Below, piece after piece: positions 11,430 to 42,468 of a stretch of 64,000 bases of DNA. Origin of the DNA: Rhodospirillales bacterium (GTDB lineage Bacteria > Pseudomonadota > Alphaproteobacteria > JAJFIK01). A model generated the notes under the pieces. It was given only the letters and a program-made list of their open reading frames with translations. It had not been told where the DNA came from and did not search any database. The position numbers and the translations under genes were made by a program. Where the stretch lies: positions 6,616 to 70,615 of the forward strand of contig JAJFIK010000009.1 of assembly GCA_021775005.1 (NCBI GenBank). Direction: 5' to 3'. Every line of letters begins with the position of its first letter. The stretch's first letter is position 1.

Positions 11430-11532
11430 CGTCATCCCGGAAATCGCGCCAGCGATTGTCCGGGATCTTGCACCACGTGAGGGGCTCTGAGATTCCGGGC
11501 TCCTCGCGTCCCGCGACGCCCCGGAATGACGG
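11430..11532. mobile_element. MITE-like element copy A (TIR cgtcatcccgg ... ccggaatgacgg, two internal hairpins)
   Basis: Near-identical architecture to copies at 35717..35813 and 42375..42468. Confidence 0.6.
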
Positions 11533-11558
11533 CGTGGGGCAGAGTGAGCAAGGATCAC

Positions 11559-12428
11559 CTATCGCGCCAACCGCTTTGCGATGTCATCAAGTTGTTCCAG
11601 CGTGCTGTAGGACAACGTGACTTTGCCCGCCTCGCCCTTGTGGCTGATCTCAACTTTGAGGCCCAAAGCATCCATCAGGCGTTTTTCCAGCGCCCGCGTG
11701 TCGGCGTCTTTCGGTGCTGGCGTTTTACCCTTGCTCTTTGACTTAGCGCCAACATCGCCCCCGTCTTTCGCCAGCGCTTCGGCCTGACGCACAGAGAGCC
11801 CCTCGGCGATAACCTGTTTGGCAAGTTGCGCCACCTCCGGCGACATCATGATGGCGCGGGCGTGGCCGGCGGAAAGCCGTCCGTCCGCCAGCATCACCTG
11901 CACCGCTTCGGGCAACCCCAAGAGCCGAAGCGTATTGGCAATATGCGGCCGCGACTTGCCGATGTATTTCGCCAGCGCGTCTTGAGTGTAGGAAAACTCA
12001 TCCATCAGCTGGCGATAGCCCAAGGCTTCCTCGATGGCATTAAGATCAGTACGCTGAACATTTTCCACAATGGCGATTTCAAGCGCCTGGGAATCATCAA
12101 GCTCTTTCACCCGTACCGGCACGTTGTGCAGTTGCGCGCGCTGGGCGGCGCGCCAACGGCGCTCCCCGGCAATAATCTGATAACGCCCGGCAACACCGGG
12201 CTTTGGCCGCACGATGATGGGTTGGATCACGCCGCGTTCCTTCACGCTGGCGGTGAGGTCTTTCAAATCATCTTCAGAAAAAATGCGCCGGGGTTGATAG
12301 GGGTTGGGTTCCAAAAACTCCACCGGCATTTCGGTGACCTCAATCGGGCCCGCTGCAGCATCTTTCCGCGCGGGGGCGTCTTCTTCACCCATCAGGGCTG
12401 AGAGCCCGCGACCTAATCCTCTTGCCAT
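11559..12428 (-). CDS. parB: Chromosome partitioning protein ParB
   Basis: 289 aa with the GERRWRAA ParB box and HTH, adjacent to parA. Confidence 0.95.
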   Translation of the reverse strand: MARGLGRGLSALMGEEDAPARKDAAAGPIEVTEMPVEFLEPNPYQPRRIFSEDDLKDLTASVKERGVIQPIIVRPKPGVAGRYQIIAGERRWRAAQRAQLHNVPVRVKELDDSQALEIAIVENVQRTDLNAIEEALGYRQLMDEFSYTQDALAKYIGKSRPHIANTLRLLGLPEAVQVMLADGRLSAGHARAIMMSPEVAQLAKQVIAEGLSVRQAEALAKDGGDVGAKSKSKGKTPAPKDADTRALEKRLMDALGLKVEISHKGEAGKVTLSYSTLEQLDDIAKRLAR

Positions 12429-12475
12429 ATCACCGAAGCCATTGCTGGCTTTCCTTCTTGTTCGCTCGCGCGCAA

Positions 12476-13312
12476 TTACGCCGCGCGTAAATCTTTTTCC
12501 CGCTGGATGACTTCACCAGCGAGGCGGATATAGGCCTGACTGCCCGCGCATCTGAGATCATAAACCAGCGCCGGCATGCCGTGGCTGGGCGCCTCAGACA
12601 CCCGCACATTGCGCGGGATGACGGTCTTGTAGACCTTGTCGCCCATAAATTCGCGCACGTCCTTGGCCACTTGGTCAGAGAGATTGTTGCGCCGATCAAA
12701 CATGGTCAGCACGATGCCTTGTATCTCAAGCTCTGGATTGAGGGAGCCCTGCACCAGTTCTACGGTGCGAAGAAGTTGGCTCAAACCTTCCAACGCGAAA
12801 AACTCACATTGCAGCGGCACCATCACCGCGTTCGCTGCCGTCATGGCATTGATGGTGAGCAAGTTGAGCGATGGCGGGCAGTCGATCAGCACATAGGTAA
12901 ACGCCGCCGCGCTGCCCTGCGCGAATTGCTCAAACATGTCTCGGAGCCGAAATGACCGGCGTGGCGCACTGATGAGTTCCAACTCGGCTCCGGAAAGATC
13001 CACTGTGGAAGGCACAATGGAAAGGTTCGGGATCCTGGTCGGTTTCACCGCATCGGCAATGGGGGTCTCGTCCACCAGCACTTCATAGGTGGAAATCTCC
13101 CGCTCATTGCGCGGAATGCCCAGACCCGTGGAGGCGTTGCCTTGAGGGTCCATATCGATGATCAGCACCTTCTCGCCCACCGCCGCCAGCGCCGTGCCAA
13201 GGTTGATCGCCGTCGTGGTTTTACCCACCCCGCCCTTTTGATTGGCAATGGCCAGAATACGGGGCGATTTGCCCCGGCCCGGCTTTGCTTGCTCGCTTAT
13301 GTCGTCGGTCAT
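12476..13312 (-). CDS. parA: Chromosome partitioning ATPase ParA
   Basis: KGGVGKTT deviant Walker A motif, 278 aa. Confidence 0.95.
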   Translation of the reverse strand: MTDDISEQAKPGRGKSPRILAIANQKGGVGKTTTAINLGTALAAVGEKVLIIDMDPQGNASTGLGIPRNEREISTYEVLVDETPIADAVKPTRIPNLSIVPSTVDLSGAELELISAPRRSFRLRDMFEQFAQGSAAAFTYVLIDCPPSLNLLTINAMTAANAVMVPLQCEFFALEGLSQLLRTVELVQGSLNPELEIQGIVLTMFDRRNNLSDQVAKDVREFMGDKVYKTVIPRNVRVSEAPSHGMPALVYDLRCAGSQAYIRLAGEVIQREKDLRAA

Positions 13313-13337
13313 ACTTTGTCAATCAAAAGGCCCGCGA

Positions 13338-13973
13338 CTAAGCCGGGCGAAAGCCGGAAAGCTTGAGAATCTGCGCCTCTCCGGCGGTATGGCTGGGGAG
13401 GGCTTGGGCCTCAAATCTCCCCCAGGCGCGGGCGTTAGTCAATTCATCATCCGCGCTTCTGCCCTTTAGGAATAGGGCGATTCCCCCCTTACCTACAAAT
13501 GGCACCGCCAGGGGCAAAAGCTCAATGAGCGGGGCGAGGGCACGGGCTGTCACTACATCAGAGGCCCAGGGCTCAAGCACTTCCGCGCGGGCATTGTGCA
13601 CTTCAGCAGGGGCCCCGGTGGCGCGGATGGCCTCGCGCAGAAACACCGCTTTGCGGCTGTCACTCTCAATCAGATGGACTTTTAGCCCTGGACGATCGCG
13701 CCCCGAAATGGCCAGAGTGAGCCCTGGAAATCCGGCCCCACTGCCAAGGTCTGTGATCGTAGTGGCGTTCTCCGGGATCAGCGGCCAGAGCTGTGCTGAG
13801 TCCACCACATGGCGGGTCCAAACGTCTTTCAGGCTCGCTTTCGAGACCAAGTTGATTTTGGGCTGCCATTTTTCCAAAAGCGCCACATGGGCGCTGAGGG
13901 CGTCCAATGTTTCACGTGAAACAATTCCAAAAGATTTGAGCGCCTCGAGCGCTTCAGGCGGAACGGCGGACAT
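13338..13973 (-). CDS. rsmG: 16S rRNA (guanine527-N7)-methyltransferase
   Basis: GidB family, [13 protein letters not shown]-binding motif. Classic gidA-gidB-parAB order. Confidence 0.9.
13908..13923. promoter_or_regulatory. parS: parS centromere site (TGTTTCACGTGAAACA)
   Basis: Perfect 16-bp palindrome matching the canonical ParB-binding parS, inside the 5' part of rsmG. Confidence 0.85.
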
Positions 13974-15825
13974 TGCCTTTTTTCACCAAATTGAGCAGCA
14001 AAGTAAGCGCAGCCGGGGTCACCCCCTCCACGCGCGCTGCCTGGCCAAGGGTCGCCGGGCGTGCCGCGGTAAGCTTGGCACGCATTTCATTGGAGAGCCC
14101 TTTGATGGCGCCATAGTCCAGATCATCAGGCAAGCCAAGGGATTCGTCTTTGCGGAATGCTAGGATGTCTGCCTCTTGCCTATCGAGATAGCCAGCATAG
14201 GCGGCGTCGATTTCCACTTGCTCCTGCACGTCCGGGGCAAAATCCAGCAGCTCCGGCCAAACCTTTGCCAGATCAGCAAAGCCGATGGATGGATAGGCCA
14301 AGAGATCCGCCACAGTGCGACGCTGGCCATCGAGATTGACCGCCAAGCCGTGGCTACGGGCCTCGTTTGGCGTAAGATTGGCCGCTGTCACAAAGGCTCG
14401 CGCATGCGCCAATCGCTGGGCCTTTGCTTCAAAGGCCTTGCCGCGCACGGGGCCGACGCAGCCCAGATTGAGGCCCAAAGGGGTCAGGCGCTGGTCCGCA
14501 TTATCGGCCCGCAGGATGAGGCGATACTCCGCCCGGCTGGTGAACATGCGATAGGGCTCTGAAACCCCGCGGGTCACCAGATCATCGATCAGAACGCCGA
14601 TATAGGCATCGGCGCGGTCGAGCACAAATGGCTCCTCCCCGCCAAGGGCCAATGCAGCGTTGAGCCCGGCCATGAGCCCCTGGGCGGCGGCTTCCTCATA
14701 CCCGGTTGTGCCATTGATCTGCCCGGCGAGATAAAGCCCAGGCAAACGGCGGGTTTCCAGCGTGGCGCGCAGCTCGCGCGGGTCCACATAGTCATATTCA
14801 ATGGCATAGCCCGGGCGGCGGATCACAGCTTCTTCCAACCCCGGAATGGTCGCCACAAAGGCGCGCTGCACGTCTTCTGGCAATGACGTGGAAATGCCAT
14901 TGGGATAGATCGTGTCATCGTCCAGGCCTTCGGGCTCCAGGAAAATCTGATGGCTGTCGCGCCCTGAAAAGCGCACGACTTTGTCCTCAATGGAGGGGCA
15001 ATAGCGCGGGCCCACGCCGTCGATCTGGCCTGAATAGACCGGGGCTTTATCCAGATTATCGGCAATGATCTTATGGGTCGCAGCCGTGGTGTGGGTAATG
15101 TGGCAAGGCACCTGGGGCACGGTGATTTCAGGGGTCAGGAATGAGAACGGCACCGGGGGCGTATCACCAGGCTGAACCTCAAGCTGGGCCCAGTTGATGG
15201 TGCTGCCATCAAGGCGCGCCGGGGTGCCGGTTTTGAGCCGCCCCATATCAAACCCAAGGCCGTAAAGCCGCTTTGAAAGGCCTATAGCCGGGGCCTCTCC
15301 TATCCTGCCGGCAGGAATGCGCTCGGTGCCAATATGAATAAGCCCATTGAGGAAAGTGCCGGTGGTGAGCACCACAGCGCCAGCGCGGATTTCCTGCCCC
15401 GCAGCTGTTACCACCCCCACAACGCGGGAGTCCTCGATCAGAAGGTCCTCCGCCGCCGCCGCCACAATAGTCAGATTTGGCGTCCCCGCCATTTCCCCCT
15501 GCATGGCTTCGCGATAGAGCTTGCGGTCCGATTGGCAGCGGGGGCCGCGCACGGCAGGGCCTTTGCGCCGGTTGAGCATGCGGAATTGAATGCCGCTGGC
15601 GTCCGCCACCCGGCCCATGACGCCATCGAGAGCATCAATTTCCCGCACCAGGTGGCCCTTGCCCAGGCCCCCGCTGGCAGGATTGCAGGACATTTCGCCG
15701 ATGGTTTCTGGTTTGTGGGTGAGCAGCGCCGTTTTTGCCCCCAGGCGCGCCGCTGCTGCCGCAGCCTCGCAGCCGGCGTGGCCGCCGCCAATTACAATAA
15801 CATCAAAGGGGATGGGCTCGGTCAT
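13954..15825 (-). CDS. mnmG: tRNA uridine-5-carboxymethylaminomethyl modification enzyme
   Basis: 623 aa with FAD-binding [11 protein letters not shown]-terminus. Confidence 0.97.
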
Positions 15826-15863
15826 GCCGGGCTATGTAGCGCGGGGGGCCGCCAACGCCAAGA

Positions 15864-15879
15864 TGTTTCACGTGAAACA
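15864..15879. promoter_or_regulatory. parS: parS centromere site (TGTTTCACGTGAAACA)
   Basis: Second perfect 16-bp parS palindrome, 39 bp upstream of the mnmG start. Confidence 0.85.
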
Positions 15880-15886
15880 CTGGCTA

Positions 15887-16555
15887 CTATGGCTGCGGTT
15901 TGGTACCTATCACTTGAGGCACATCTGAAAGCTCCCGACAGTACCATTCGGTATCCGCGCATATCCACCCTATTAATCCCAACAGCCTGTCATGTTCTCG
16001 GGTCGGTGATTTATCAATAATACAATAGTGGTGCGCGATCTTGTTGCGGAACAGTCGAAATCCTTCTGCTCGTTTCATTATCGTATCCAGAGTGGTACGC
16101 GCCGGAACATATGGGAAAGATCGACTGGTCCCGACCGCCCACAGGTGTGAGCTATATCTTGCGGTCAACATACTACACCAAAAATTGAGTGGAAGTGCGG
16201 CTAAGACCTGATCTGTCGTTGGTGTGCTTCTTCGCGCCTTTTGCTCCCTCTCTATTATTTGCTCTAGCTTTATCCGATGGTGCTCCACCAGAATTCCGTG
16301 AAAGCCCGTCTCCCAAGGCCATCTATCGCCAAATCTACGATAGATTGGCTTTGCAATGGTGTTTCGCAGGGATACTTCTCCAATATGTATTGGAAGGTTA
16401 AATGCTTGAGATAACTGAATGTTCCAAGCGTACAAGCGGATGGCGTATTGATCATCACCTTTTGCTAGGCCCAGATATCTTGAGAATCGCCCACTCGACA
16501 TTGTTGACCTAATTGTCGCCAATGTGCTGGGCGTTAGAGAGAATTCGTATTGCAT
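15887..16555 (-). CDS. Abi_2-family (AbiD/AbiF-like) abortive-infection protein, low GC
   Basis: N-terminal ...YAIRLYAW... and C-terminal ...RLFRNKIAHHYCII... match Abi_2 hallmark blocks. AT-rich codon usage. Inserted between mnmG and mnmE. Confidence 0.6.
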   Translation of the reverse strand: MQYEFSLTPSTLATIRSTMSSGRFSRYLGLAKGDDQYAIRLYAWNIQLSQAFNLPIHIGEVSLRNTIAKPIYRRFGDRWPWETGFHGILVEHHRIKLEQIIEREQKARRSTPTTDQVLAALPLNFWCSMLTARYSSHLWAVGTSRSFPYVPARTTLDTIMKRAEGFRLFRNKIAHHYCIIDKSPTREHDRLLGLIGWICADTEWYCRELSDVPQVIGTKPQP

Positions 16556-16696
16556 ATTTTACTTTTTCAGACTATATCTAGCTCACGAGCTGCAGAAGGA
16601 TCACTGGAAACATATCCCTGCAGACAAAGATCGAGGCCGGGCCGAAAGGTGCCGGTCTCAACCTTATGTAGTCCTTGATAGCGCCTACATCTACCA

Positions 16697-18007
16697 CTAT
16701 TTCCCAATGCAGAACTCAGCGAAAACCACATCCAGCAGGTCTTCCACGTCCACCTTGCCCATAAGGCGCTCCAAAGCGCGGGCGGCCAGGCGCAGATCTT
16801 CCCCGCATAACTCAGCTTCCTGGGCCATTTCAGCCCGTGTCAGCGCCCCGATGGCGTCTTCCAGGGCGCGGATATGGCGCGCGCGGGTGAGGGTCGGGGC
16901 CTCGGTAATGCCAGCGCGGGCCACCACTTCGTCCCGCAGACGGGCCTCCAGAGTGTCCAGCCCTTCACCGGTTTTGACGCTGACGCGGAGGAAATCAGGG
17001 GTATCGGTGCTCAGATCCGCCTTGCTGATGAGCACTATATCGCCCTCGCGCACCTGGGCTTTGGCTTGGGGGTCTGGCGGCAAGGTGGCATCAAACAGCA
17101 CCAATCTTAGGTCCGCCCGCTGGGCCCGCGCCAGGGCGCGTTTGATCCCCTCACTCTCAATCTCATCGGAAGCATCCCGTAGCCCGGCGGTGTCGGCGAG
17201 GGTCACCGGGTAGCCGCCAAGGTCCATTTGCACCTCAACCACGTCCCTGGTGGTGCCTGCCGTGGCCGAGACAATGGCCGCCTCTCTGCCCGCTAAGGCA
17301 TTGAGTATGCTTGACTTTCCCGCGTTCGGCGCACCCAGGATGGCAACCTCCAGCCCCTCGCGCAGGCGCACGCCCTTTTGCCCGCACACAAGTTCCGCTT
17401 CCAGCTCGTTTGCCAAATCTTTGATCCCCGGCCGGGCCTTGCCCAAAAGACCGCCGGGGACGCCATCTTCATCGGGAAAGTCGATATCCGCGGCCACCAA
17501 GGCGGCCAGCTTGATGATCTGCCTGCGCCACAAGGCGACCCGCCCGGCGAGCGCGCCTTCCATCTGGCGCAGGGCCTGGCGGCGCTGGGCTTCGGTTTCA
17601 GCGTCGATAAGGTCGGCAAGGCCCTCAACGGCGGTAAGATCCATCTTGCCCGCCTCAAAGGCGCGGCGGGTAAACTCGCCAGGCTCCGCAGGGCGCAAGT
17701 CATCAAAAGTCCCAAGCGCATCCAGAACCGCCGCAATGACCGCGCGGCCGCCATGAATGTGAAGCTCCGCCACATCCTCGCCGGTAAAGCTTGCCGGGGC
17801 GGGAAACCACAAAGAAAGCGCCCGGTCCAGCGGTGCATTGGTCTTGGGATGCGCCAGCTCACAAAGGCTTGCCGCGCGCGGCTTTGGCAATGATTTGCCC
17901 GAAAGCGCAGCTAATGCCGGCCCCGCGCCTGGCCCTGAGAGGCGGATCACCGCCACCCCTGCCCGGCCCGCAGCAGAGGAAAGCGCATAGATGGTGCCCG
18001 TACTCAC
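16697..18007 (-). CDS. mnmE: tRNA modification GTPase
   Basis: 436 aa with G-domain GAPNAGKSS and C-terminal CIGK. Confidence 0.95.
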   Translation of the reverse strand: MSTGTIYALSSAAGRAGVAVIRLSGPGAGPALAALSGKSLPKPRAASLCELAHPKTNAPLDRALSLWFPAPASFTGEDVAELHIHGGRAVIAAVLDALGTFDDLRPAEPGEFTRRAFEAGKMDLTAVEGLADLIDAETEAQRRQALRQMEGALAGRVALWRRQIIKLAALVAADIDFPDEDGVPGGLLGKARPGIKDLANELEAELVCGQKGVRLREGLEVAILGAPNAGKSSILNALAGREAAIVSATAGTTRDVVEVQMDLGGYPVTLADTAGLRDASDEIESEGIKRALARAQRADLRLVLFDATLPPDPQAKAQVREGDIVLISKADLSTDTPDFLRVSVKTGEGLDTLEARLRDEVVARAGITEAPTLTRARHIRALEDAIGALTRAEMAQEAELCGEDLRLAARALERLMGKVDVEDLLDVVFAEFCIGK

Positions 18008-18270
18008 TCGTCGTCAGGCTCGCTCTTGCTTGATCCCCGGCCGGTGGCCTTGCTCATGGCACTCATGAAGACATTGCGCATTTGGTCATAGCCCGCGCCG
18101 CCGGGCATCCACGCCCGCATCAGCGTTTCGGGGTCCACCATCCCGGCAGCCGCTTCCATGCGCTCCTGCAGCTTTGCCGTCATGGCCTCATTCAAGGGCT
18201 CAAGGTCCGGCAGCCCAAAAAAGCTCCGCGCTTCCTGCGGGGTACAATCAATCTCAACTTTGATCTTCAT
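18004..18270 (-). CDS. Small conserved hypothetical protein, translationally coupled to mnmE (ATGA overlap)
   Basis: 88-aa ORF whose stop overlaps the mnmE start codon. No recognisable family. Confidence 0.45.
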   Translation of the reverse strand: MKIKVEIDCTPQEARSFFGLPDLEPLNEAMTAKLQERMEAAAGMVDPETLMRAWMPGGAGYDQMRNVFMSAMSKATGRGSSKSEPDDE

Positions 18271-18430
18271 TAGGGCATCTCCTTTGCGCCCCAGACTAAG
18301 CCAGTGCAGCGCCTGACGCCAATCAGCCTTAACTTAAGGCCCTGCTTTAACCGCCAGGGCACCCCGCCGTTGACAGGACCCCGTCCTTTGTGAGAACTCG
18401 CGCCTTCAACAATCAGGATCAAGTCATATC

Positions 18431-20470: not shown

Positions 20471-20556
20471 CAGCCGCGCCCACTGGCCCCTTCACGTTTA
20501 CCTCATCCTCTGGCTAGACTGCGCGCAAATTTCAACACGCGCGGAGGCGACCCCCT

Positions 20557-31344: not shown

Positions 31345-32406
31345 TCAGCCTTGCCAGCTGGTAACAAGATCCACCAGATCAGCCACATGCTCTGGCGGCG
31401 TTTCCGGCACAATGCCGTGGCCCAGGTTAAAGATGTGCCCGCCCCCCTTGAAGCTCTCAAGAATGGCTCTGGCTTCGCGCTCAAGTGCCTCCCCGCCCGC
31501 CACAAGGGCGAAAGGATCAAGATTGCCCTGCACCGGGCACAAGGGCTGCACATGTTCTACGGCCCAGTCCCTTGGAACGCCGGTATCAAGGCCCACAGCA
31601 GCGACCCCCGTGCCCTGGATATAGCCAGGGATTGCGGGACCCGCTCCTCTGGGGAAACCAATGATGGGGACGCCGGGATGACTTTTACCCAGTGCCGCCA
31701 CAATTTGTTTTGTCGGCGCGATGACCCAGCGCTCAAACTCAGCTGTGGGCATGTTCGCGGCCCAGCTATCAAACAGCTGCAAAACCTCCGCCCCGGCGTC
31801 TACTTGCTCACGCAGATAAATCACCGTGGCATCGACTACCAGATTGATGAGACTCTGAAACCCGGCAGGATCTCTTGCCGCCCAAATGCGTGCTGCACGC
31901 TGGTCTGGAGAGCCTCGCCCCCCCACCATGTAGGTCGCTACCGTCCATGGGCTTCCTGCAAACCCAATGAGCGCCACATGGTCTGGCAGCTCGCTTTTAA
32001 GCCTGTCCAGGGTTTCAAACACCGGCGCAAGGTGGCCGGAAATATTATCCAGTGATAGTGCTGCCAATTCAGCCTCGCTTGAAATGCATTCCAGCACCGG
32101 CCCTTCACCCTCTTGAAATGAGACCTTCTGCCCCAGCGCATCAGGGATCAAAAGAATATCTGCAAAAAGGATCGCCGCATCGAGATTAAATCGCCGCAAG
32201 GGCTGCAAGGTTACCTCTGCTGCCAGCTTAGGATTATAGCAAAGCTCTAGGAAGCTCCCGGCCCCTTTGCGCACTTCACGATACTCAGGCAGATAGCGCC
32301 CCGCTTGGCGCATGAGCCAAATGGGTGGCCGCTCAACCACACTCTTCTCAAGGACTTTGAGAAGCCGCTTGTTTGAACGTTCCAGGGTTTGTTGGGAGGC
32401 GGACAA
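31345..32406 (-). CDS. hemE: Uroporphyrinogen decarboxylase
   Basis: PIWLMRQAGRYLPEY URO-D signature 1. Confidence 0.95.
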   Translation of the reverse strand: MSASQQTLERSNKRLLKVLEKSVVERPPIWLMRQAGRYLPEYREVRKGAGSFLELCYNPKLAAEVTLQPLRRFNLDAAILFADILLIPDALGQKVSFQEGEGPVLECISSEAELAALSLDNISGHLAPVFETLDRLKSELPDHVALIGFAGSPWTVATYMVGGRGSPDQRAARIWAARDPAGFQSLINLVVDATVIYLREQVDAGAEVLQLFDSWAANMPTAEFERWVIAPTKQIVAALGKSHPGVPIIGFPRGAGPAIPGYIQGTGVAAVGLDTGVPRDWAVEHVQPLCPVQGNLDPFALVAGGEALEREARAILESFKGGGHIFNLGHGIVPETPPEHVADLVDLVTSWQG

Positions 32407-34227: not shown

Positions 34228-35069
34228 CCGCGCGCGGCACAAAAGCAGGGGTTATTGGCTGGCCGGTGGCGCATTCGCTCTCCCCGGCGCTGCATCAATA
34301 TTGGCTCCAGCGATACGGGGTTGAGGGCAGCTATGGCCATTATCCCGTTGCGCCCAATGACCTTAAACATTTCATCATGGCGCTTGCTGACAATGGTTTT
34401 GTCGGCATCAACGCCACCTTGCCTCATAAGGAACATGTGGCCCAGCTTATGGATCGTCTGGGTCCCGCCGCTCAAGCGGTGGGGGCAGCAAACACCGTGG
34501 TTGTCGAAGCCGATGGCACTTTAACGGGCCACAGCACCGATGGCTTTGGCTTTGTTGCCAATTTGCGCAGCGCGGTACCAAAGCTGAAGCTGGACAGTGC
34601 CCAAGCGGTGATATTGGGGGCCGGCGGGGCGGCGATGTCGATCCTGGCCGCGCTCAAATGGGCGGGCGTCACAGTTACGCTTTGCAATAGAACGCGCGCC
34701 CGCGCGGAGGCTTTGGCCGCCCTGGTGGGCGGCATCCATGTCCTGCCCTGGGGCGAGCGTTCCGTAGCGCTTGACGCGTGCGATCTATTGATCAACACCA
34801 CCAGTCTTGGGATGCGCGGCCAACCGGCACTTGAAATTGATCTGAACGCCATGCCGCGCGGCAGCGCGGTGGCCGATTGCGTTTATGCGCCACTCCAAAC
34901 GGCTTTGCTCAAAGCGGCGGCGGCGCAGGGGCTGGTGCCCGTTGATGGCCTTGGCATGTTGATCCATCAAGCGCGCCCGGCCTTTAAGGCCTGGTTCGGC
35001 ATCGACCCTGAGGTAACCGATGAATTGCGCGGCCATCTGGTCAAAGCACAAAGGACTCTCGTCACATGA
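34224..35069 (+). CDS. aroE: Shikimate dehydrogenase
   Basis: [16 protein letters not shown] substrate-binding motif. GAGGAA NADP site. Confidence 0.9.
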
Positions 35070-35665
35070 TTCTTGTTGGTCTCACCGGCTCCATCGGCAT
35101 GGGCAAATCGGCCACGGCAAAATTGTTCGCCGCAGAAGGTGTGCCGGTTTATGACGCCGATCTGGCGGTTCATGATCTCTACGCCAAAGGCGGCGCGGCA
35201 GTGGCCCCGATTGCGGTCTCGTTTCCCGGCGCTGTGAAAGACGGCGCGGTGGACCGTGATCGGCTCTCCGCCATGGTGCTGGGCCAGCAAGACGCGCTCA
35301 AAACCCTTGAGGCCATTGTTCACCCGCTGGTACGCCAGGTGCAGGTGGACTGGCTAACCAAACACGCCAAGGCCGGCGAAGGGATTGTGGTGCTCGACGT
35401 GCCGCTGTTGTTTGAAACCTCGTCTGAGAAAAACTTTCAGGAAATTGTTGTTGTCAGTGCGCCGGAAGAGGTGCAGCGCGCGCGGGTGCTGGGGCGGCCC
35501 GGCATGACGGCAGAAAAGCTCGACGACATTTTGATGCGTCAGATTCCCGATGCGCAAAAACGCGAGCGGGCGGATTTCATTATCGAAACTTCAAAAGGCA
35601 TTGATGACGCCCGTGGGCAGGTGCAGGCGGTGCTGCAGGCGATAAAGAAAAAACATATGCTTTAA
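35066..35665 (+). CDS. coaE: Dephospho-CoA kinase
   Basis: [12 protein letters not shown]-loop, 199 aa. Confidence 0.9.
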
Positions 35666-35716
35666 AATCAGTCGGCTTGGCTGCGGTGTTGTGAAAGCCC
35701 TCCGCCCTCTCAATAA

Positions 35717-35813
35717 CGTCATCCCGGGGCGGCAACGCCAAATCCGGGATCTTGCGATACATATCGCCGTTCGAGATTCCGGGCTCCTCGGATTACGCGG
35801 CCCCGGCATGACG
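35717..35813. mobile_element. MITE-like element copy B (TIR cgtcatcccgg ... ccggcatgacg)
   Basis: Same bipartite hairpin architecture (atcccgg..ccgggat ; gagattccgggc..gccccgg) as copies A and C. Sits in the coaE-dnaQ intergenic region. Confidence 0.6.
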
Positions 35814-35896
35814 ATGTGTGTGGTTTGTTGAGAATGGTACTGGACGGCCCCCCAAAGCGTTCGCCATGATGGCAGCGGGTCATTGAGGGGCAGGTT

Positions 35897-36586
35897 ATGC
35901 GTGAGATCGTGTTCGACACGGAAACCACCGGGTTTGATCCCGACAGCGGCGACCGCATCGTGGAAATTGGTGCGTTGGAGCTGGTCAATCATGTGGTCAC
36001 CGGCAAATCCTTCCATGAGTATCTCAATCCAGAGCGGGACATGCCCCAAAGTGCCTTTGAAGTGCACGGGCTCTCAGCGGAGTTCCTTGCGGACAAGTCG
36101 CTTTTCGCCGATGTGGCGGATGAGTTTTTGAAATTTATCGGCGATGCCCCGCTTATCGCCCATAACGCCAGCTTTGATATGAAGTTCATCAATGCGGAGC
36201 TGCGCAAAGCCAATCGTGAAGTTCTGCCGCTGGCGCGCGCCATCGACAGCTTGCTTATCGCGCGCAAGAAATACCCCGGCGCGCCAGCAAGTCTCGATGC
36301 CCTTTGTCGCCGCTTCAATGTGGATTCGAGCGGGCGCACGCTTCACGGAGCGTTGCTAGATAGCCAATTGTTGGCGGAAGTTTATCTGGAGCTTATTGGC
36401 GGGCGGGAACCAGGGCTGACATTGATTGAGGATGATGACGCCGCGTCTGCACACGCAGGCCCGGCACGGCGGGGCCCGCGGCCGCAACCCCTGGCCGCTC
36501 GTCTTAGCGATGATGAGCGCACGGCCCACGAGGCCTTTGTGGACCTCATGGGCGCAAACGCCTTGTGGGCAAAATCGCCAGCTTAG
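35897..36586 (+). CDS. dnaQ: DNA polymerase III epsilon subunit (3'-5' exonuclease)
   Basis: Exo I motif VFDTETTG, Exo II and Exo III present. Confidence 0.9.
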   Translation: MREIVFDTETTGFDPDSGDRIVEIGALELVNHVVTGKSFHEYLNPERDMPQSAFEVHGLSAEFLADKSLFADVADEFLKFIGDAPLIAHNASFDMKFINAELRKANREVLPLARAIDSLLIARKKYPGAPASLDALCRRFNVDSSGRTLHGALLDSQLLAEVYLELIGGREPGLTLIEDDDAASAHAGPARRGPRPQPLAARLSDDERTAHEAFVDLMGANALWAKSPA

Positions 36587-37119
36587 GCGTCGTCGCCTGA
36601 TGCCTCAGTGTCCGCGGCGGCGGCTTGGTCTTCTTTCGCTTTGGCCAATTGCTGACGATAGATTTGCGCAAAATCCATGTAGTCGAGGGCCAACGGCGGG
36701 AAACCGCCATCGCGGGTGAGGTCAGACACGATGCGCCGCGCGAAGGGGAACAAAAAGCGCGGCGCTTCGATCAGAACCAGCGGCTGAAGGCTTTCTTCCG
36801 GCACGCCCGCAATATGAAACGCCCCCGCATAAAGCAGGTCGACCAGAAAGACGACTTTGTCGCCTCGGGTGGCGCGGGCGGTAAGCTTCAGGCAAACCTC
36901 GTATTGGTCTTTGCCAAGTTGCTTGGGCAACACATCCACAAGAATGTCGATGGCGGGTTGCGGCAATCCGTTGCCAAGCGCCTGGGGCGCGTTGGGGTTC
37001 TCAAAGCTGAGATCCTTGACGTATTGGGTGAGCACGCGAAAGGCGCTGCCTTTTTCGCTCGATGGTGCCGGGCCGGCTGTTGGAGCGGCTGCACCGCCGC
37101 CTTGGGTATTGTCACTCAT
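36583..37119 (-). CDS. secB: Protein-export chaperone SecB
   Basis: Start at MSDNTQ. FRVLTQYVKDLSFENP SecB core. Confidence 0.85.
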   Translation of the reverse strand: MSDNTQGGGAAAPTAGPAPSSEKGSAFRVLTQYVKDLSFENPNAPQALGNGLPQPAIDILVDVLPKQLGKDQYEVCLKLTARATRGDKVVFLVDLLYAGAFHIAGVPEESLQPLVLIEAPRFLFPFARRIVSDLTRDGGFPPLALDYMDFAQIYRQQLAKAKEDQAAAADTEASGDDA

Positions 37120-37213
37120 AAACTTGCTTCCCCTGATGGGAGGGCCCTTGCGCCCCCCGTGATCTCGGCGGCGCATCTAGCATGTCCAATCCAAGGGCAC
37201 AAGAATGAGGCCG

Positions 37214-37720
37214 CTAGTGGGGCGGGGTGTCGTCGATTTCTGTGGCCTCGCCTTCAATAACCGGGCCACTGCCGCCGCTGGTCCCAGAAGTGGTGGCATG
37301 GACATGGATATTTTTGCGCAGGGCCTCAAAGACCAATTTGGCGATGGCTTGGCGCACCGGCGGCACAAAGAGCAAAAATCCGATGGCATCGGTGACAAAC
37401 CCTGGCGTCAGCAGCAATGCCCCGGCGACGATAAGGAAAGCCCCATTGGCGACCTCATTAATGGGCAGCTCGCCGCGATTGAGCGCGTCTTGCGCGCGGG
37501 CCCAGGTGGCTAGGCCTTGAGCGCGCCAAAGGGCAGCCCCCAAAAGCGCTGTGAGGATCACAATCAAGAGAGTGGGCATCACGCCGATAATGCCGCCCAC
37601 TTGCAGGAACACCGCAATTTCAATGAGGGGCGTGATGAGAAAAGCGATGAAAAGTGTCAAACCCACGATTGTTTCCTTTGGTTTTGAGCATATCTCTTGC
37701 TCATAGCTCACTTGGGCCAT
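37214..37720 (-). CDS. fxsA: FxsA family membrane protein
   Basis: PLIEIAVFLQVGG...LLLTPGFVTDAIGFLLFVPPVR FxsA signature. Confidence 0.7.
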   Translation of the reverse strand: MAQVSYEQEICSKPKETIVGLTLFIAFLITPLIEIAVFLQVGGIIGVMPTLLIVILTALLGAALWRAQGLATWARAQDALNRGELPINEVANGAFLIVAGALLLTPGFVTDAIGFLLFVPPVRQAIAKLVFEALRKNIHVHATTSGTSGGSGPVIEGEATEIDDTPPH

Positions 37721-37892
37721 ATGTCCCTAACACGAGGGCGGTGGACCGCACCGCAGCACACCGTTAAGCTGGATCCCGTGGGGCCCTTGCTGCGAGGTGG
37801 CGCTTGGGTTGTATATGGGGCTTGGTCAGGAAATGTCAGCTATTTGAGTGTAAGGACGCTTAAAGGCTGGGTAAAAAAGGCAAATCGATACA

Positions 37893-38549
37893 GTGCTAGA
37901 TTTCGATATCATCATTCTGCTGGCGATCGTCGGCTTTATCGGCTGGAAGCTGTTTGGCGCGCTGGGCACGCGCACGGGCCATGAAAACCCCAATCCGGAC
38001 CCCATGGCCCGCCGTCGTCATGGTGCCCCTGCATCAGATCAAAGCGCTGACAATGTGGTCAATATGCCCAATGCCAATCGCGACGCAGCGCCCGGCTCGG
38101 CCTCAGGCCAGGGCATCCTTGATATTCAATTGGCCGATCGCAGCTTTGATCCGGGCGGCTTCCTGGAAGGCGCGCGCCATGCTTATGAGATGATTGTCAC
38201 GGCGTTCGCGGAGGGCAACCGCCGCTCCTTACGCCCGCTTTTGTCTGATGAAGCCTATGAGGATTTCGATGCCGCCTTGCGCGCCCGCGAAGCCGAAGGC
38301 AAGCGTATTGAAACCACGTTTATCGGTATTGATGACGCAAAGATTTCCAGCGCCGCGCTTAATGGCACTTGGGCCGAGGTGGTGGTGAAGTTTATCTCTG
38401 AAATTATCTCCGTGACTAAAAACGAAGACGGCGCAGTGATCGAAGGTGACCCCACTACGGTGCGCAAAATCACCGACGTGTGGACGTTTTCTCGCGACAC
38501 CCGCTCACCGGACCCCAACTGGGTGCTGATCGCCACTGACGAGGCGTAA
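37893..38549 (+). CDS. Tim44-like domain membrane protein
   Basis: N-terminal TM helix. C-terminal domain similar to Tim44/MBA1. Conserved neighbour of mltA in alphaproteobacteria. Confidence 0.7.
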   Translation: MLDFDIIILLAIVGFIGWKLFGALGTRTGHENPNPDPMARRRHGAPASDQSADNVVNMPNANRDAAPGSASGQGILDIQLADRSFDPGGFLEGARHAYEMIVTAFAEGNRRSLRPLLSDEAYEDFDAALRAREAEGKRIETTFIGIDDAKISSAALNGTWAEVVVKFISEIISVTKNEDGAVIEGDPTTVRKITDVWTFSRDTRSPDPNWVLIATDEA

Positions 38550-38555
38550 GACCCC

Positions 38556-39881
38556 ATGCGCGGTGTTGCCTATGCCTTGCTGATCCTTGGGGCGAGCGGG
38601 CTGTTACTTTTCTCCTATATTGCGCGACCGCCAGCTCCTGAATTGCCAGACCATATGATTGTGGAAGTGGCCAGCTTCGATGATCTGCCAGGATGGGGGG
38701 CCCAGCGCCCGCAATCCATTCTCAGCGCGTTAGACCGTGGCTGCTTGAGGTTTTTTGGGCTACGCGGCAACGACTGGGAAGATCCAGATGATTCACAAGC
38801 GTTTAGGCAATTCTTTGAGTTACCCTTTCAAGAAGTAAGCATCGGTGGGGACTCAGGCCTCTATGGGTTTCTAAACGAGTGGGGGCAAGCCTGTTTGGAG
38901 CTAGAGGGTGCAGAATTTGGACTGTCCCACACGCGGTTGACCCCAGACACTATGATAACAGGTGATCAGGCGGCAGCGCTGTTGCTGGAGGGCGCTGAGC
39001 AAAAATTTACACCCATCCGCATACGGAACAATTCAGAAACAACTGGCATGTTCACTGGTTATTATGAGCCGGAGCTGCAAGGCAGCCGCACAGAGACGGC
39101 AGAGTTCTCAACGCCGCTGCTCACCCGCCCCGATGATCTTGTGATCGTGCAGCTGGGGGATTTTCCTGGCGATCATGATGGCCGCATTGCTGGCCGTGTT
39201 GTTGATGGCAACCTGCATCCGTTTGAAAGCCGCACGGAGATCGAAGCAGGCGCGCTTGCCAATGCGCAGCCCCTTGCCTGGGTTAGGCCGGTGGATGCGT
39301 TCTTTTTGCAAATACAAGGCTCTGGCCGTGTGGTGTTTGAAGATGGCGCGGTTTTGCGCGCAGGCTATGACGGCGTCAACGGGCATCCCTACACCGCCAT
39401 TGGGCGCACGCTTATTCGGCAAGGCGCGCTGACGCTGGAAAATGTTTCCATGCAGTCCATCCGCGATTGGCTTGAGCAAAATCCCGATGGTGCGGGGGAG
39501 GTGATGCGCACTAACGCCTCTTATGTTTTCTTTCGCGAGGTCGAAGTGGATGACCCAGAGCTTGGCCCCATTGGCGCGGCGGGGGTGCCGCTTACGCCGG
39601 GCTATAGTCTTGCCGTGGACGCGCGCTATCACGCCTATGGCGCGCCCATTTACATCGCCACCACATTGCCTGACGGCACACCGTTCAATCGTTTGATGGT
39701 GGCGCAAGATACCGGCGGCGCGATCCGCGGGCCCATCCGCGGTGACATCTTTTTTGGCTACGGCGATGAAGCCGGCGCAGTTGCCGGGCGCATGCGCAAC
39801 CAAGGGGAAATGTGGGTGCTGGTGCCCAACGCCATTGCTGATCGCCTGCTCGCAGAGCAAGCTGCGCAAGAGAGCGAGTAA
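38556..39881 (+). CDS. mltA: Membrane-bound lytic murein transglycosylase A
   Basis: 441 aa, MltA domain plus 3D domain (...AQDTGGAIRGP...DIFFG). Confidence 0.85.
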   Translation: MRGVAYALLILGASGLLLFSYIARPPAPELPDHMIVEVASFDDLPGWGAQRPQSILSALDRGCLRFFGLRGNDWEDPDDSQAFRQFFELPFQEVSIGGDSGLYGFLNEWGQACLELEGAEFGLSHTRLTPDTMITGDQAAALLLEGAEQKFTPIRIRNNSETTGMFTGYYEPELQGSRTETAEFSTPLLTRPDDLVIVQLGDFPGDHDGRIAGRVVDGNLHPFESRTEIEAGALANAQPLAWVRPVDAFFLQIQGSGRVVFEDGAVLRAGYDGVNGHPYTAIGRTLIRQGALTLENVSMQSIRDWLEQNPDGAGEVMRTNASYVFFREVEVDDPELGPIGAAGVPLTPGYSLAVDARYHAYGAPIYIATTLPDGTPFNRLMVAQDTGGAIRGPIRGDIFFGYGDEAGAVAGRMRNQGEMWVLVPNAIADRLLAEQAAQESE

Positions 39882-40444
39882 TGCGCCGCAAGGGTCGCCC
39901 ATTGCACGGCGAAGAACGCAGCCTCTGGAACCACGTGGCGCGGACCGTCAATCCGCGACATCCTAATGTGCGCCCTGCCCAAGATGATGCCTTGCCGCTA
40001 GCTCACAACAAAGCACAGCCGCACAAGCCAGTGCTCACTTCAAAACCGGCACTGCTGAAATCAACCCCCGCCCGCCCTGCCCCGCAATTACATATTGATG
40101 GTGCCACCGCGCGCCGCCTCAAACGCGGGCAAGCGCAGATCGATGCAAAGCTTGATCTGCATGGCATGCGCCAAACAGAAGCTCATGATGCGCTGGTGAG
40201 TTTTATCCTGGGGGCGCAAGCCCGCGGCGCACGCTGCGTGCTTGTCATCACTGGCAAAGGCACAAAGGGCGCCGGGCATTCCAACCCTTACGAGACGCCG
40301 GGCCCGGGTATTTTGAAATCCCGGCTCGGGCAATGGCTCGCGCAAGCTCCCCTGAGCGCCATCACATATGGATTGCGCAAAGCCCACCCGCGCCACGGCG
40401 GCTCCGGCGCGCATTACGTCTTTATACGGAAGATCAAAGGTTAG
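39881..40444 (+). CDS. Smr domain protein
   Basis: LDLHGMRQTEAHDAL...VLVITGKG Smr/MutS2 C-terminal nuclease-like domain. Confidence 0.7.
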   Translation: MRRKGRPLHGEERSLWNHVARTVNPRHPNVRPAQDDALPLAHNKAQPHKPVLTSKPALLKSTPARPAPQLHIDGATARRLKRGQAQIDAKLDLHGMRQTEAHDALVSFILGAQARGARCVLVITGKGTKGAGHSNPYETPGPGILKSRLGQWLAQAPLSAITYGLRKAHPRHGGSGAHYVFIRKIKG

Positions 40445-42317
40445 GTGCCACATGCAAACGGGCCCCGCTGCTTGGGGCGGCCCGTTTTTTGTTTTCAGGA
40501 ACCGCTGCGCCCGCCCCCGGCTGTGCGTTGGGAATGCGCGCCATGATGCAGCCCTTGAACTGGAAGGTGCCCTTTTTGCCAGCGCGCTTTGGCGATCCTC
40601 CGCCCCTCCAGGCGTCGGCGCTCCACATTGAATTGGTGCCGGTATGGGATTTGCGTTGGGCGTCAACGGCGACGTCCTTCAGCGCTTTCTGAACGGTCGC
40701 ATCACCAATAAGCTCTGCATGTTCATTGCGGGCGAGATAGGCCCTGAGCTCGATGAACGCCCGCTCGCCTTCATCGCGGCTGCGCGGCGGCAGCACCTGC
40801 ACCATTGTTGCGTCCACGTCGGTTGCGCCGAGCAACTTGCTTAGAAGCGGATAAATGGACGTCTCCCCCTTGGGAGGCGTCAGCACGATAAACGACCGGT
40901 AGGGGCTGAGCAGCCGACGCAGGCCAGTTTCTGCGTCAACGGCAAACAGATGATCCATCGCCGCCCGGACGCAGGTTGTCGCCTCAACCATCATGGCGCG
41001 GCGCTCAGGGGGCAGATCGGTGTAAGGCGCAGGGTCGCGGAAGACGGGGAACCATTCAAACGGGGCGGCGCCCCAGAACCCGTCCCGATAGCTTCGCTGG
41101 TTCAGCAACCGGACAATGGCCTCCAAATCCGGCAGTTTCAGCTTTTCAGTTTTCTTGAGCTTCTCGCGGTCCTTCTTAGGAGCCTTGTTCAAGGCAGCCT
41201 TTTGTTCGTCTTTCAAGGCAGCCATGAATTCCCGAATAAGGGCGCCGGCGAAAAAGTATCTGTCGCTTTTAAGCAGACCATCACGCTTTGCAGCAGCTTC
41301 CCGTCCGCGCAGCTTGGCGCATTCGCTCAGAGCTTTAAAAGTGGCCCTGTCTTTGATGTCATTGAACTGGCCGGTCTGTTTGGCAATCTGCAGAAAAATG
41401 TATCGCGCAGCGGCTTTGTCGACGTCTTTTGGCTTTTGTGCCTTGCGCGACAAAAGCAGATAGCGCGTCAGGTTCCCTTCGCCATAATCCTGAATGCCGC
41501 GCACGAGGCGTGCGTCGGTTGCCGGGGTGTTGGAGCCGTGATCGGCCCCTGCCCGTTCCGCCTCTGCCTCCGCGTCTTCGTTGTCGGCTTCAGCGTTGGG
41601 AAGTTGCGCTGCGGATGTCTTACGCACCGCGCCGCCGACGCGGACGAGATCGAACATGCGTGCCGAATAGGCCGAGCCGATGGCCGCCACCTTTAGCGAA
41701 TAGGGTGGGTTCATCACCTCGACATTCAGCTCGTCGGTTTCCGTCTTGATGCTCTTTGCCGCCGCCGCCGTGCAGGTCATGGTCACGCGCCGGGCATTGG
41801 GCATGGTGCGGGAAATGAAATCGGCGCACTGGCGCAGGCCCTGATCGTCTGAGCGGATTTCCGAAATCGCGCTCAGGATCGCTTCCTGCTTCTCGGGCGC
41901 GCCATCAAGGCGATCCTGAATCGCCAGGAGCTCGAGTTCTTCGTCTGGCCGGAACACCCCAAAGCGTTGTGCCAGCGATTTGGTGACCAGCACATGGTGC
42001 TCGACCTGCTGATAGACATCGTCAATCACATGCACGCCGTTTTGGGCGATCAGCGACAGTGGCTCCACTACCATGCCGGTCCGGTTGTTATGGACGGCAA
42101 CCACTGCGGCGTCAGCGCGGCCTTCGGTCAGAAGCTCAAACACTTCCTCATAGGTGGGCTGCGGTGCAGGCTTGTACTTGGAGGCAAATTCCGTCCGCTG
42201 GGTCACGGCAAAGCCGCACGCGCCCTGTTCTCCCTGGCAGGCAAGGTACTCCGTTGCTCTGTCTGCAGGTTCAGCCATGGCCGGTTCGGGTGCCTCGCAT
42301 CGACGTGGTAAATTCAT
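40434..42317 (-). CDS. Prephenate-dehydratase (PDT)-domain protein fused to ~380-aa uncharacterised Lys/Arg-rich C-terminal region
   Basis: N-terminal ~250 aa align to the PheA PDT fold (YLACQGEQGACGF ~ VAYQGxPGAYSE; AAVVAVHNNRTGMVVEPL ~ GVVPIENSxxGxV). No ACT domain. An acidic linker is followed by an unknown domain. Flanked by a MITE copy upstream. Confidence 0.55.
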   Translation of the reverse strand: MNLPRRCEAPEPAMAEPADRATEYLACQGEQGACGFAVTQRTEFASKYKPAPQPTYEEVFELLTEGRADAAVVAVHNNRTGMVVEPLSLIAQNGVHVIDDVYQQVEHHVLVTKSLAQRFGVFRPDEELELLAIQDRLDGAPEKQEAILSAISEIRSDDQGLRQCADFISRTMPNARRVTMTCTAAAAKSIKTETDELNVEVMNPPYSLKVAAIGSAYSARMFDLVRVGGAVRKTSAAQLPNAEADNEDAEAEAERAGADHGSNTPATDARLVRGIQDYGEGNLTRYLLLSRKAQKPKDVDKAAARYIFLQIAKQTGQFNDIKDRATFKALSECAKLRGREAAAKRDGLLKSDRYFFAGALIREFMAALKDEQKAALNKAPKKDREKLKKTEKLKLPDLEAIVRLLNQRSYRDGFWGAAPFEWFPVFRDPAPYTDLPPERRAMMVEATTCVRAAMDHLFAVDAETGLRRLLSPYRSFIVLTPPKGETSIYPLLSKLLGATDVDATMVQVLPPRSRDEGERAFIELRAYLARNEHAELIGDATVQKALKDVAVDAQRKSHTGTNSMWSADAWRGGGSPKRAGKKGTFQFKGCIMARIPNAQPGAGAAVPENKKRAAPSSGARLHVAPNL

Positions 42318-42374
42318 CTATATGATACACCCAATTTCGCAGGGGAGTCCAGAAACCACGAGTGCTTGCCAACT

Positions 42375-42468
42375 GTCATCCCGGAAATCGCGGCAGCGAT
42401 TTCCGGGATCTCACGGCGTAGGTTCTTGTTGGAGATCCCGGGCGCCCGGCGGTGCCCCGGGATGACGG
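42375..42468. mobile_element. MITE-like element copy C (TIR tgtcatcccgg ... ccgggatgacgg)
   Basis: Best-conserved copy. Both internal hairpins are nearly perfect. Confidence 0.6.

Follow-up and report, generated by a model that had tools for sequence, protein, structure and literature searches.

In the 64-kb stretch of alphaproteobacterial DNA analysed here (the window), a sequence of about 100 bp recurs between genes, and this raises the question of whether the copies are a new transposable element or members of a class of repeats that is already known. An earlier note on this DNA had described them as a novel, MITE-like family and had mentioned REP or BIME-type repeats as an alternative. 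It was the alternative that proved right. The inverted hairpin units of these repeats match the anatomy of REPs that carry a CGTC tag; the repeats, which lie in a Parvibaculum-like contig, belong to a class already described in 2013 and do not constitute a new transposon family.

Dimers in the window and their anatomy

In nhmmer searches, the three copies of about 100 bp (A to C) were clearly homologous (E 1e-26 to 1e-31). A profile built from them recovered all three on the plus strand of the 64-kb window with E-values of 3e-31, 2e-27 and 5e-26, and so confirmed the places at which they had been reported, with the edges listed in Table 1. All three are intergenic and have the termini (C/T)GTCATCCCGG ... 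CCGGRATGACG and two internal hairpins in common, and in these respects the first description holds. The sequence beside one copy is unrelated to that beside the others, and thus the copies did not arise by segmental duplication, in which similarity would run on beyond the repeats and which the earlier note had set against a mobile element.

The same profile gave no further strong match in the window. The next one was at 10466-10502 (E 0.31) and covers a right unit alone, at the position where a half copy, consisting of the right arm only, had been proposed. A repeat is indeed present there, but it is not a half: it forms the right unit of a fourth and diverged dimer, D. In total, the window, which covers 64 kb of a 91.7-kb contig, contains four dimers, or eight units.

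Table 1. Coordinates in the window of the four dimers, which are predicted to be CGTC-tagged REPs, of their units where described separately, and of two neighbouring genes
Feature	Position	Tag sense or strand	Left unit	Spacer	Right unit	Organisation
Dimer A	11430-11531		11430-11469	11470-11488	11489-11531	tags outside
Dimer A, left unit	11430-11469	+				CGTC-ATCCCGG-arm-CCGGGAT-CTT
Dimer A, right unit	11489-11531	-				CGTC-ATTCCGG-arm-CCGGAAT-CTC
Dimer B	35717-35813		35717-35753	35754-35772	35773-35813	
Dimer C	42374-42467		42374-42412 (TGTC variant)	42413-42431	42432-42467	
Dimer D	10385-10503		10385-10414	about 50 nt	10464-10503	fourth dimer, diverged and degenerate
Dimer D, left unit	10385-10414					CGTC-ATGTTCGGG-CTAGA-CCCGGACAT-CTG; 9-bp stem ATGTTCGGG:CCCGGACAT, 5-nt loop CTAGA, tail CTG
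Dimer D, right unit	10464-10503	-				TGTC-ATCCTCGGG...CCCGGGGAT-CTG
parB	11559-12428	-				
DCC1-like gene	9884-10291					

In its own 5'-to-3' direction, a unit begins with an unpaired (C/T)GTC, which is followed by the start of the stem (AT-CCCGG), a variable and mostly self-complementary arm, CCGGG-AT and a tail of 3 nt (CTC, CTT or CTG); the tail is unpaired and present in every window unit. The tag is CGTC in six of the eight units and TGTC in the other two, and all eight read tag-AT...AT-tail. The stem is G+C-rich, with A-T and T-A as its first two pairs. The four elements are all dimers with their tags outside, and the spacer measures 19 nt in A to C and about 50 nt in D. Two inverted units some 19 nt apart account for the element of about 100 bp, and the apparent 11-bp terminal inverted repeats (TIRs) are the tag and the outer stem arm of these two units. 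The left unit of dimer D has a 9-bp stem and a 5-nt loop; in the units of dimers A to C, 7-8 conserved pairs lead into self-complementary, bulged arms of 15-22 nt.

Probable affiliation with CGTC-tagged REPs and relatives in other genomes

CGTC-tagged REPs and their head-to-head (HH) dimers were described by Di Nocera, De Gregorio & Rocco (2013, BMC Genomics 14:522; PMC3733652). In that paper, the tag is an unpaired CGTC at one end of the palindrome, with TGTC and CCTC accepted as variants, the stems begin with AT, and a 3-bp tail is found in all families. The HH dimers, in which the tags lie outside, prevail and have spacers mostly of 20-100 bp. The hosts are mostly alphaproteobacteria. The units are multi-copy and dispersed genome-wide, in tens to thousands, and lie near ORF 3' ends, where the neighbouring genes run in one direction or converge; no association with a transposase is known in that account. 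The superfamily is stated to take in the Neisseria dRS3 repeats/NIMEs (as CGTC-1) and Rickettsia RPE-4/RPE-6.

The window repeats resemble these published REPs (PMC3733652) in the CGTC or TGTC tag, the A-T/T-A stem base and the unpaired 3-nt tail. They are likewise inverted, tags-outside dimers, often heterodimers, whose units are spaced by about 20 nt or more, and they share the alphaproteobacterial host, the position at gene 3' ends in same-direction or convergent junctions and the lack of a known associated transposase. They differ from the same description in the tails, which are CTC, CTT or CTG in the window and CCA in the published consensus, and in the arms. The description gives stems of 8-9 bp and loops of 4-5 nt, with which only the left unit of dimer D agrees exactly; most window arms are long and bulged. 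The paper allows such variation for some families and reports it for CGTC-1 of Bradyrhizobium. Judged by the published description, the four window elements are very likely HH dimers of CGTC-tagged REPs with their tags facing outward, a match at the level of the superfamily. The earlier note's word "novel" is therefore not supported, as the matching anatomy was in print in 2013 (PMC3733652).

Relatives with short arms, in which an 8-9 bp stem encloses a loop of 4-5 nt, exist as well, for example ATCCCGGG-CTTGA-CCCGGGAT. The dRS3 sequence of Neisseria reads CGTC-ATTCCCGC-loop-GCGGGAAT-CCA; its logic of tag, AT-stem and tail is that of the window units, whereas its stem sequence differs. The Neisseria units mostly form large clusters flanking other repeats and the RPE-4/RPE-6 copies of Rickettsia are often within genes; in the window, by contrast, each dimer stands alone and outside genes.

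When reference genomes were scanned with a pattern, at least 112 loci were recovered, from alphaproteobacteria as well as from other phyla. The genome labels in the sample included Alphaproteobacteria, Gammaproteobacteria, Actinobacteria, Bacteroidota, Calditrichota and one candidate-phylum bacterium. Most box positions were fixed by the pattern, so their conservation in the sample is by construction. At the positions left free, the base ahead of GTCAT was C in 59 of the 98 non-redundant elements and T in another 30, and the tail was CTC at its two free positions in 72 of these 98 relatives. Position 6 of the third box covaried with position 5 of the fourth (C:G in 74 elements, T:A in 22, mismatched in 2). 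Because the arms are bulged, position-by-position pairing fails past the first pair, and arm pairing was judged instead by folding against shuffles; the inner arms proved self-complementary (median z -2.3 and -1.9) and the spacer was in general unstructured (median z -0.07). Singles, dimers and clusters all occur among the loci. Tags-outside dimers were the commonest, with 139 left-right pairs less than 60 nt apart and every other arrangement far rarer, in a scan that itself selected for dimers.

Five Bradyrhizobium genomes have a dimer at the same orthologous site, and the boxes there are conserved better than the adjoining intergenic DNA. In a plasmid collection, an 8-kb region had no match, and copy A had a single match (74%), on a Terrarubrum plasmid. 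A literature search by the repeat sequence and its hypothetical translated peptides returned primer coincidences at most.

Other readings of the repeats

Inverted doublets of tagged hairpins are also known from the GTAG REPs, BIMEs and REPINs of E. coli and Pseudomonas, which are likewise extragenic, near 3' ends, without target-site duplications (TSDs) and vertically persistent. A strict REPIN, that is, an inverted REP doublet moved by a single-copy RAYT (HUH-Y1) encoded elsewhere in the genome, would have the architecture seen here, in which two tagged hairpins lie inverted across a short spacer, outside genes and without a TSD, and persist vertically. It would also agree with the strong polarity of the loops. 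On the tag strand, triloops were C-GNA-G in 65 of 103 cases versus TNC in 1, and tetraloops were C-GNNA-G in 37 of 71 versus TNNC in 2, a bias that would fit an enzyme reading a single hairpin strand. However, the window units have CGTC where RAYT-associated REPs have a GTAG or GGAG head. A REPIN is built of two nearly identical units, but the arms of a window dimer differ from each other. REPINs also come with a matching RAYT gene that lies between REPs, whereas none is known or was seen for the CGTC type: no Y1/RAYT gene lies beside the four window dimers and none recurs in the 112 loci. According to the literature, Y1 homologues are absent or few in Alphaproteobacteria, and according to the survey in PMC3733652 no tyrosine transposase gene of a CGTC-positive species has CGTC units at its sides. 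We consider a strict REPIN improbable. The window dimers and the GTAG repeats probably work alike at the RNA or DNA level.

The other proposal of the earlier note was a non-autonomous transposon. As a classical MITE, each copy would be a deletion derivative of an insertion sequence with a DDE transposase (e.g. IS630/Tc1-like), moved by cut-and-paste and bounded by TIRs and a TSD. The length of about 100 bp, the inverted-repeat ends of 10-11 bp, the intergenic copies and the near-identical copies within some genomes fit this reading, and bacterial MITEs such as the Correia element and IS630-derived elements are similar in size, apparent TIRs and intergenic location. However, TSDs, which the earlier note had suggested checking, were found neither at the window copies nor among the 98 non-redundant relatives, and flanking direct repeats of 2-7 bp were not above the expectation from shuffled partners (for 4-mers, 0 observed versus 0.5 expected). 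The search for a cognate transposase with matching TIRs, likewise suggested, led to the same outcome. In an all-against-all comparison of ORFs at the 112 loci, complemented by inspection of the ORFs situated between units, no transposase or other protein family recurred beside the elements, and the ORF families shared among loci were ordinary paralogues (ABC ATPases, acyl-CoA synthetases and SDRs) and orthologous neighbourhoods. No longer element with these ends enclosed an ORF; one left-right pair is 487 bp apart and none is wider. The window elements have no TSD or parent insertion sequence, and the supposed TIR lies within each hairpin unit, a self-contained unit that is also found singly and in arrays. 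A MITE is therefore a most improbable reading. An Rpn/YhgA-like gene flanked by units was considered as an associated gene and rejected, as it was found in one Verticiella contig only.

Equally hard to credit is a structured non-coding RNA (an sRNA or a cis-regulatory element) with a four-way junction, in which the termini pair, the central boxes pair and the two arms form hairpins. Dimer C, the best folder of the copies, folds perfectly in this way (-65.8 kcal/mol, z -6.6), and RNAalifold on the three window copies favours pairing of the termini and of the central boxes. However, RNAalifold on these three copies cannot separate the two-hairpin from the four-way pairing, and the covariation between boxes 3 and 4 fits both models alike. 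Because the inverted units share tag and tail, four-way pairing is an automatic result and not independent evidence, and we rejected it as a feature in its own right. The unstructured spacer also counts against such an RNA, as does the two-fold symmetry of the element, which can lie either way round with respect to transcription (dimer B co-oriented with its genes, dimer C anti-oriented). No Rfam family was matched: gathering thresholds for the window and four related loci, and permissive thresholds for copy C, gave one tRNA and chance-level matches only. Neither a promoter-like nor a terminator-like site was seen in the flanks of dimer B.

Gene context, possible function and propagation

The genes adjoining the window dimers are the holA-side DCC1-like gene, a membrane protein gene, parB, coaE, dnaQ, hslU and an ORF with a PDT domain. 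Dimer D is 93 nt past the stop of the DCC1-like gene. Dimer A has convergent genes on either side, an ORF on the plus strand that ends at 11334 and parB, whose stop codon is at 11559. This dimer had been thought to truncate a fossil parB, but its edge is 27 nt away from the parB stop codon, beyond the end of the gene, and the parB product has its complete length of 289 aa, in which ParB_N, HTH_ParB and ParB_C match as far as residue 287. Dimer B lies 51 nt past the coaE stop and 83 nt ahead of the dnaQ start, and both genes are on the plus strand. Dimer C is situated, as had been noted, ahead of the PDT gene, 56 nt upstream of the start of this 627-aa ORF; more telling is that it follows the hslU stop by 10 nt (both genes on the minus strand). 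The nearest relative of this HslU is 82% identical. The relatives, too, tend to lie a short way downstream of a gene. In crude ORF calls, 45 lay between genes of the same direction, 31 between convergent and 12 between divergent genes, and the distance from element to stop was 3-30 nt in about a third.

If a dimer is read through from the upstream gene, two strong hairpins would form at the 3' end of the mRNA or between cistrons. By analogy with other REPs, these hairpins may modulate the stability or processing of mRNA 3' ends, and the literature favours, as its main hypothesis on function, a role as mRNA stabiliser or at the 3' end. Being two-fold symmetric, the dimer would act equally in either direction of transcription, and this would suit convergent junctions. 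A role as a terminator, which had been suggested as well, is unlikely in the classical sense since no T-run follows the hairpins. G-U pairs (85 on the tag strand versus 119 on the other) showed no strand bias and thus do not speak for selection that acts on a single strand of transcript.

For annotation, the repeats should be labelled as REP-type extragenic palindromes and not as a new mobile element; they do not disrupt parB. As a class of repeats, CGTC REPs occur very widely in bacteria. No enzyme has been a candidate for their propagation since their description in 2013, and the literature reports no dedicated transposase for them. Three observations may help with the question of propagation: loops of the C-GNA-G type are polar on the tag strand, TSDs are absent, and a dimer has been kept at the orthologous site in Bradyrhizobium. 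The family might spread, or be kept up, through a strand-specific and hairpin-recognising activity that acts in trans. It is a speculative and rather unlikely proposal that such an activity, other than a RAYT, copies or maintains CGTC dimers by recognising the tag and a hairpin with a C-GNA-G or C-GNNA-G loop. If it is true, tag, stem base and loop polarity would be shared across phyla owing to a conserved factor that acts in trans or to repeated horizontal spread, and not to common ancestry alone.

Repeat copies in the window and their anatomy

We built a profile HMM from the three full copies of the repeat (A, B and C) and searched it across the whole window. It returned these copies with E-values of 3e-31, 2e-27 and 5e-26, the only matches of that strength. 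The repeat family thus exists, at the places and in the form that the earlier note gave. The next-ranked match (E 0.31) was the reported half copy. This copy is present but is not a lone half: a generic unit search found a unit at 10385-10414 that faces it, and the two therefore form a fourth, diverged dimer (D), of which the half copy is the right unit. The sequences flanking A, B and C were unrelated between copies, and segmental duplication is thus ruled out. The decamer GTCATCCCGG, with at most one mismatch, occurred 15 times in the window versus 5.2 expected, an excess due to the repeat copies themselves; the occurrences at 31673, 35499, 12613 and 19630 have no palindrome and lie within long ORFs.

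Each full copy could be parsed into seven parts: box 1, arm, box 2, spacer, box 3, arm and box 4. The right half, when read on the minus strand, repeats the form of the left half. The element thus consists of two inverted units of a single kind, each composed in order of (C/T)GTC, AT-CCCGG, an arm, CCGGG-AT and a 3-nt tail. What had been described as 11-bp terminal inverted repeats is the tag plus the outer stem arm of both units. In dimer D the left unit reads CGTC-ATGTTCGGG-CTAGA-CCCGGACAT-CTG, and the right unit, on the minus strand, TGTC-ATCCTCGGG...CCCGGGGAT-CTG.

Dimers located in the window and boxes of the full copies
Feature	Position	Strand	Sequence	Basis or remark
Dimer A	11430-11531	+		profile HMM match; tag bases counted in
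Dimer B	35717-35813	+		profile HMM match; tag bases counted in
Dimer C	42374-42467	+		profile HMM match; tag bases counted in
Dimer D (diverged)	10385-10503			generic unit search and facing half copy
Box 1			GTCATCCCGG	then variable arm
Box 2			CCGGGATCT(C/T)	then 19-nt spacer
Box 3			GAGAT(C/T)CCGG	then second variable arm
Box 4			CCGG(G/A/C)ATGAC	closes the element

Assignment to the CGTC-tagged REPs

No Rfam family matched the repeats: the window and four related loci, searched at gathering thresholds, and copy C, searched at permissive thresholds, gave a tRNA and chance-level hits alone. The superfamily of CGTC-tagged repetitive extragenic palindromes (REPs), as described by Di Nocera, De Gregorio and Rocco in 2013 (PMC3733652), has an unpaired CGTC tag (variants TGTC or CCTC), an A and a T at the start of nearly all stems, and an unpaired 3-bp tail in every family. 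According to that description, "HH" dimers, in which the tags are outside, predominate and are often heterodimeric, with spacers of mostly 20-100 bp; the hosts are mostly alphaproteobacteria, with five phyla overall; the sites are near ORF 3' ends at unidirectional and convergent gene junctions; and transposase genes are not associated. Neisseria dRS3 is assigned there to CGTC-1 and Rickettsia RPE-6/RPE-4 to CGTC-1/CGTC-4, and Bradyrhizobium families with unusual loop lengths are listed. The elements in the window agree with this description in each defining feature, but differ in their tails, which are CTC, CTT or CTG versus a consensus of CCA, and, for dimers A-C, in their long bulged arms (PMC3733652). 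The repeats are thus a new instance of known CGTC-tagged REP dimers; of the two readings offered in the earlier note, the REP/BIME-type repeat holds and the novel MITE does not.

Relatives in other genomes

We scanned one genome per species with an exact pattern of three boxes and variable gaps, and at least 112 loci matched. The pattern fixes most box positions, and only the free positions are informative. The alphaproteobacterial loci among the matches listed include many Bradyrhizobium, as well as Hyphomicrobiaceae, Microvirga, Methylobacterium, Inquilinus, Marivibrio and others; the assembly labels also include Gammaproteobacteria, Verticiella, Wenzhouxiangella, Thioalkalivibrio, Micropruina/Propionicimonas, Chitinophagaceae/Bacteroidota, Calditrichota and a Paceibacter. 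Several of these genomes have multiple copies, and single units and arrays were found besides the tags-outside dimers.

Among the non-redundant elements in the matches listed, GTCAT was preceded by C (59/98) or T (30/98) and ATGAC was followed by G (55/98) or A (33/98), which makes CGTC or TGTC the head of the unit. Box 4 covaried with the variable base of box 3 in these matches (C:G 74, T:A 22, mismatches 2), and the arms were self-complementary compared to shuffles (median z -2.3 and -1.9), whereas the spacer was not (median z -0.07). Both the covariation and these arm values speak for the two unit hairpins. Copy C folded into a perfect four-way junction (-65.8 kcal/mol, z -6.6), copies A and B folded less cleanly (z -3.7 and -4.2), and RNAalifold on the three window copies preferred pairing of the terminal and central boxes. 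We rejected the junction as an independent feature, because inverted units with a shared tag and tail are automatically complementary there.

Read from the tag, the predicted triloops among the matches listed were C-GNA-G in 65 of 103 versus TNC in 1, and the tetraloops C-GNNA-G in 37 of 71 versus TNNC in 2. This asymmetry is real. DNA mini-hairpins of the d(C-GNA-G) type are unusually stable, and in RNA the GNRA tetraloop is stable. The polarity therefore places selection on the tag strand, although it alone does not tell whether as DNA or as RNA. No strand bias of G-U pairs was found.

With regard to mobility, direct repeats of 2-7 bp flanking the 98 non-redundant elements among the matches listed were not above shuffled expectation, and no target-site duplication flanks these elements or the window copies. 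A cognate transposase did not emerge either, as no protein family recurred near these elements except common paralogues and orthologous neighbourhoods, and no unit pairs enclosed a gene-sized insert in the manner of a transposon. The searchable later papers citing PMC3733652 added no mobilising enzyme, and one of them describes Y1 transposase homologues as few or none in alphaproteobacteria.

By crude ORF calls, 45 of the elements among the matches listed lie between same-direction genes, 31 at convergent and 12 at divergent junctions, and about a third of the distances from element to stop codon are 3-30 nt. In five Bradyrhizobium genomes a dimer occupies one orthologous junction, 10 nt past the stop codon; its boxes are conserved more than the adjacent intergenic DNA, but its right arm has an insertion or deletion in two of the five, which shows retention and also decay.

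Three groups of loci deserve separate description. In the Verticiella sp. MAG contig JAWLHC010000016.1, putative Rpn/YhgA-like nuclease genes (Pfam Transposase_31, E 1.7e-11, and DUF4351; L028 2552-3367 and L072 2442-3229, both minus strand) have CGTC-type dimers on both flanks in a locally duplicated segment. This linkage is probably incidental, because no unit-flanked gene of this kind was found outside that contig among the matches listed. In actinobacterial Micropruina/Propionicimonas MAGs (L006, L014, L023, L029, L033, L036, L039, L109 and others), one or two extra direct, partnerless GTCATCCCGG (tag and stem arm) stand ahead of the left unit, and tandem arrays of dimers were found as well, L109 having as many as 12 units within 8 kb. 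A Hyphomicrobiaceae MAG subfamily of ~150-bp dimers (L005, L016, L026, L049, L052, L103) has inverted repeats also just beyond the tags, e.g. gaaccacgatt ... aatgatggttc; here the repeated unit reaches beyond the CGTC tags.

Gene context and possible role

The window is an origin-proximal region of an alphaproteobacterial chromosome. Dimer D lies 3' of a DCC1-like gene, and dimer B separates coaE from dnaQ. Dimer A has a small membrane-protein ORF on one side and the parB 3' end on the other, 27 nt past the parB stop; its proposed truncation of a parB fragment was not reproduced, because the encoded protein is full-length, its ParB_N, HTH_ParB and ParB_C domains matching up to residue 287/289. 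Dimer C begins 10 nt past the hslU stop and, as had been noted, stands ahead of the PDT-fusion gene, 56 nt before a 627-aa ORF (40434-42317, minus strand). The prephenate dehydratase domain of this ORF is confined to N-terminal residues 26-223, and the remaining ~400 residues are lysine/alanine-rich, with no Pfam match. HslU has one identical protein, on an NCBI contig, and otherwise at most 82% identity to any protein, the best named relatives being Parvibaculum and related genera.

The predicted product of the small ORF (10429-11334, plus strand; true start probably near 10650) is a membrane protein for which Pfam gave no significant match, FtsX-like being below threshold. Dimers D and A stand on either side of the ORF, which lies between the holA/DCC1-like genes and the parB 3' end. 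In many alphaproteobacteria holA and parB adjoin each other directly in convergent orientation, and the ORF could be an inserted gene. Directly upstream of dimer D, at 10318-10381, are two further small palindromes, CTTCCCCC-TTGC-GGGGGAAG and GGAAGTT-GTGGCACGTGG-AACTTCC (which includes CACGTG), with no relation to the CGTC units. The sole tRNA gene of the window, tRNA-Arg(CCT) at 54351-54437 (plus strand, ARAGORN), is long for a tRNA-Arg at 87 nt. G+C dips to 0.53-0.54 at 54-58 kb, 0.515 at 62-64 kb and 0.535-0.547 at 24-30 kb, and these stretches may be islands.

T-runs are lacking after the hairpins of copies A-C on both strands, and a terminator scan around copy B found nothing; the dimers are therefore not canonical intrinsic terminators, a role that the earlier note had considered. 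Our analysis establishes the identity of the element and where such elements sit. Judging from the REP literature and this context, a read-through transcript from the upstream gene would end in, or pass, two strong hairpins, which could protect the mRNA 3' end or set the relative expression of the neighbours; the two-fold symmetry would make the dimer equivalent for both directions of transcription. Propagation would proceed via a trans-acting activity specific for hairpin and tag. The CGTC-tagged REPs, a widespread class, could be selfish yet long tolerated and at the same time useful to the host.
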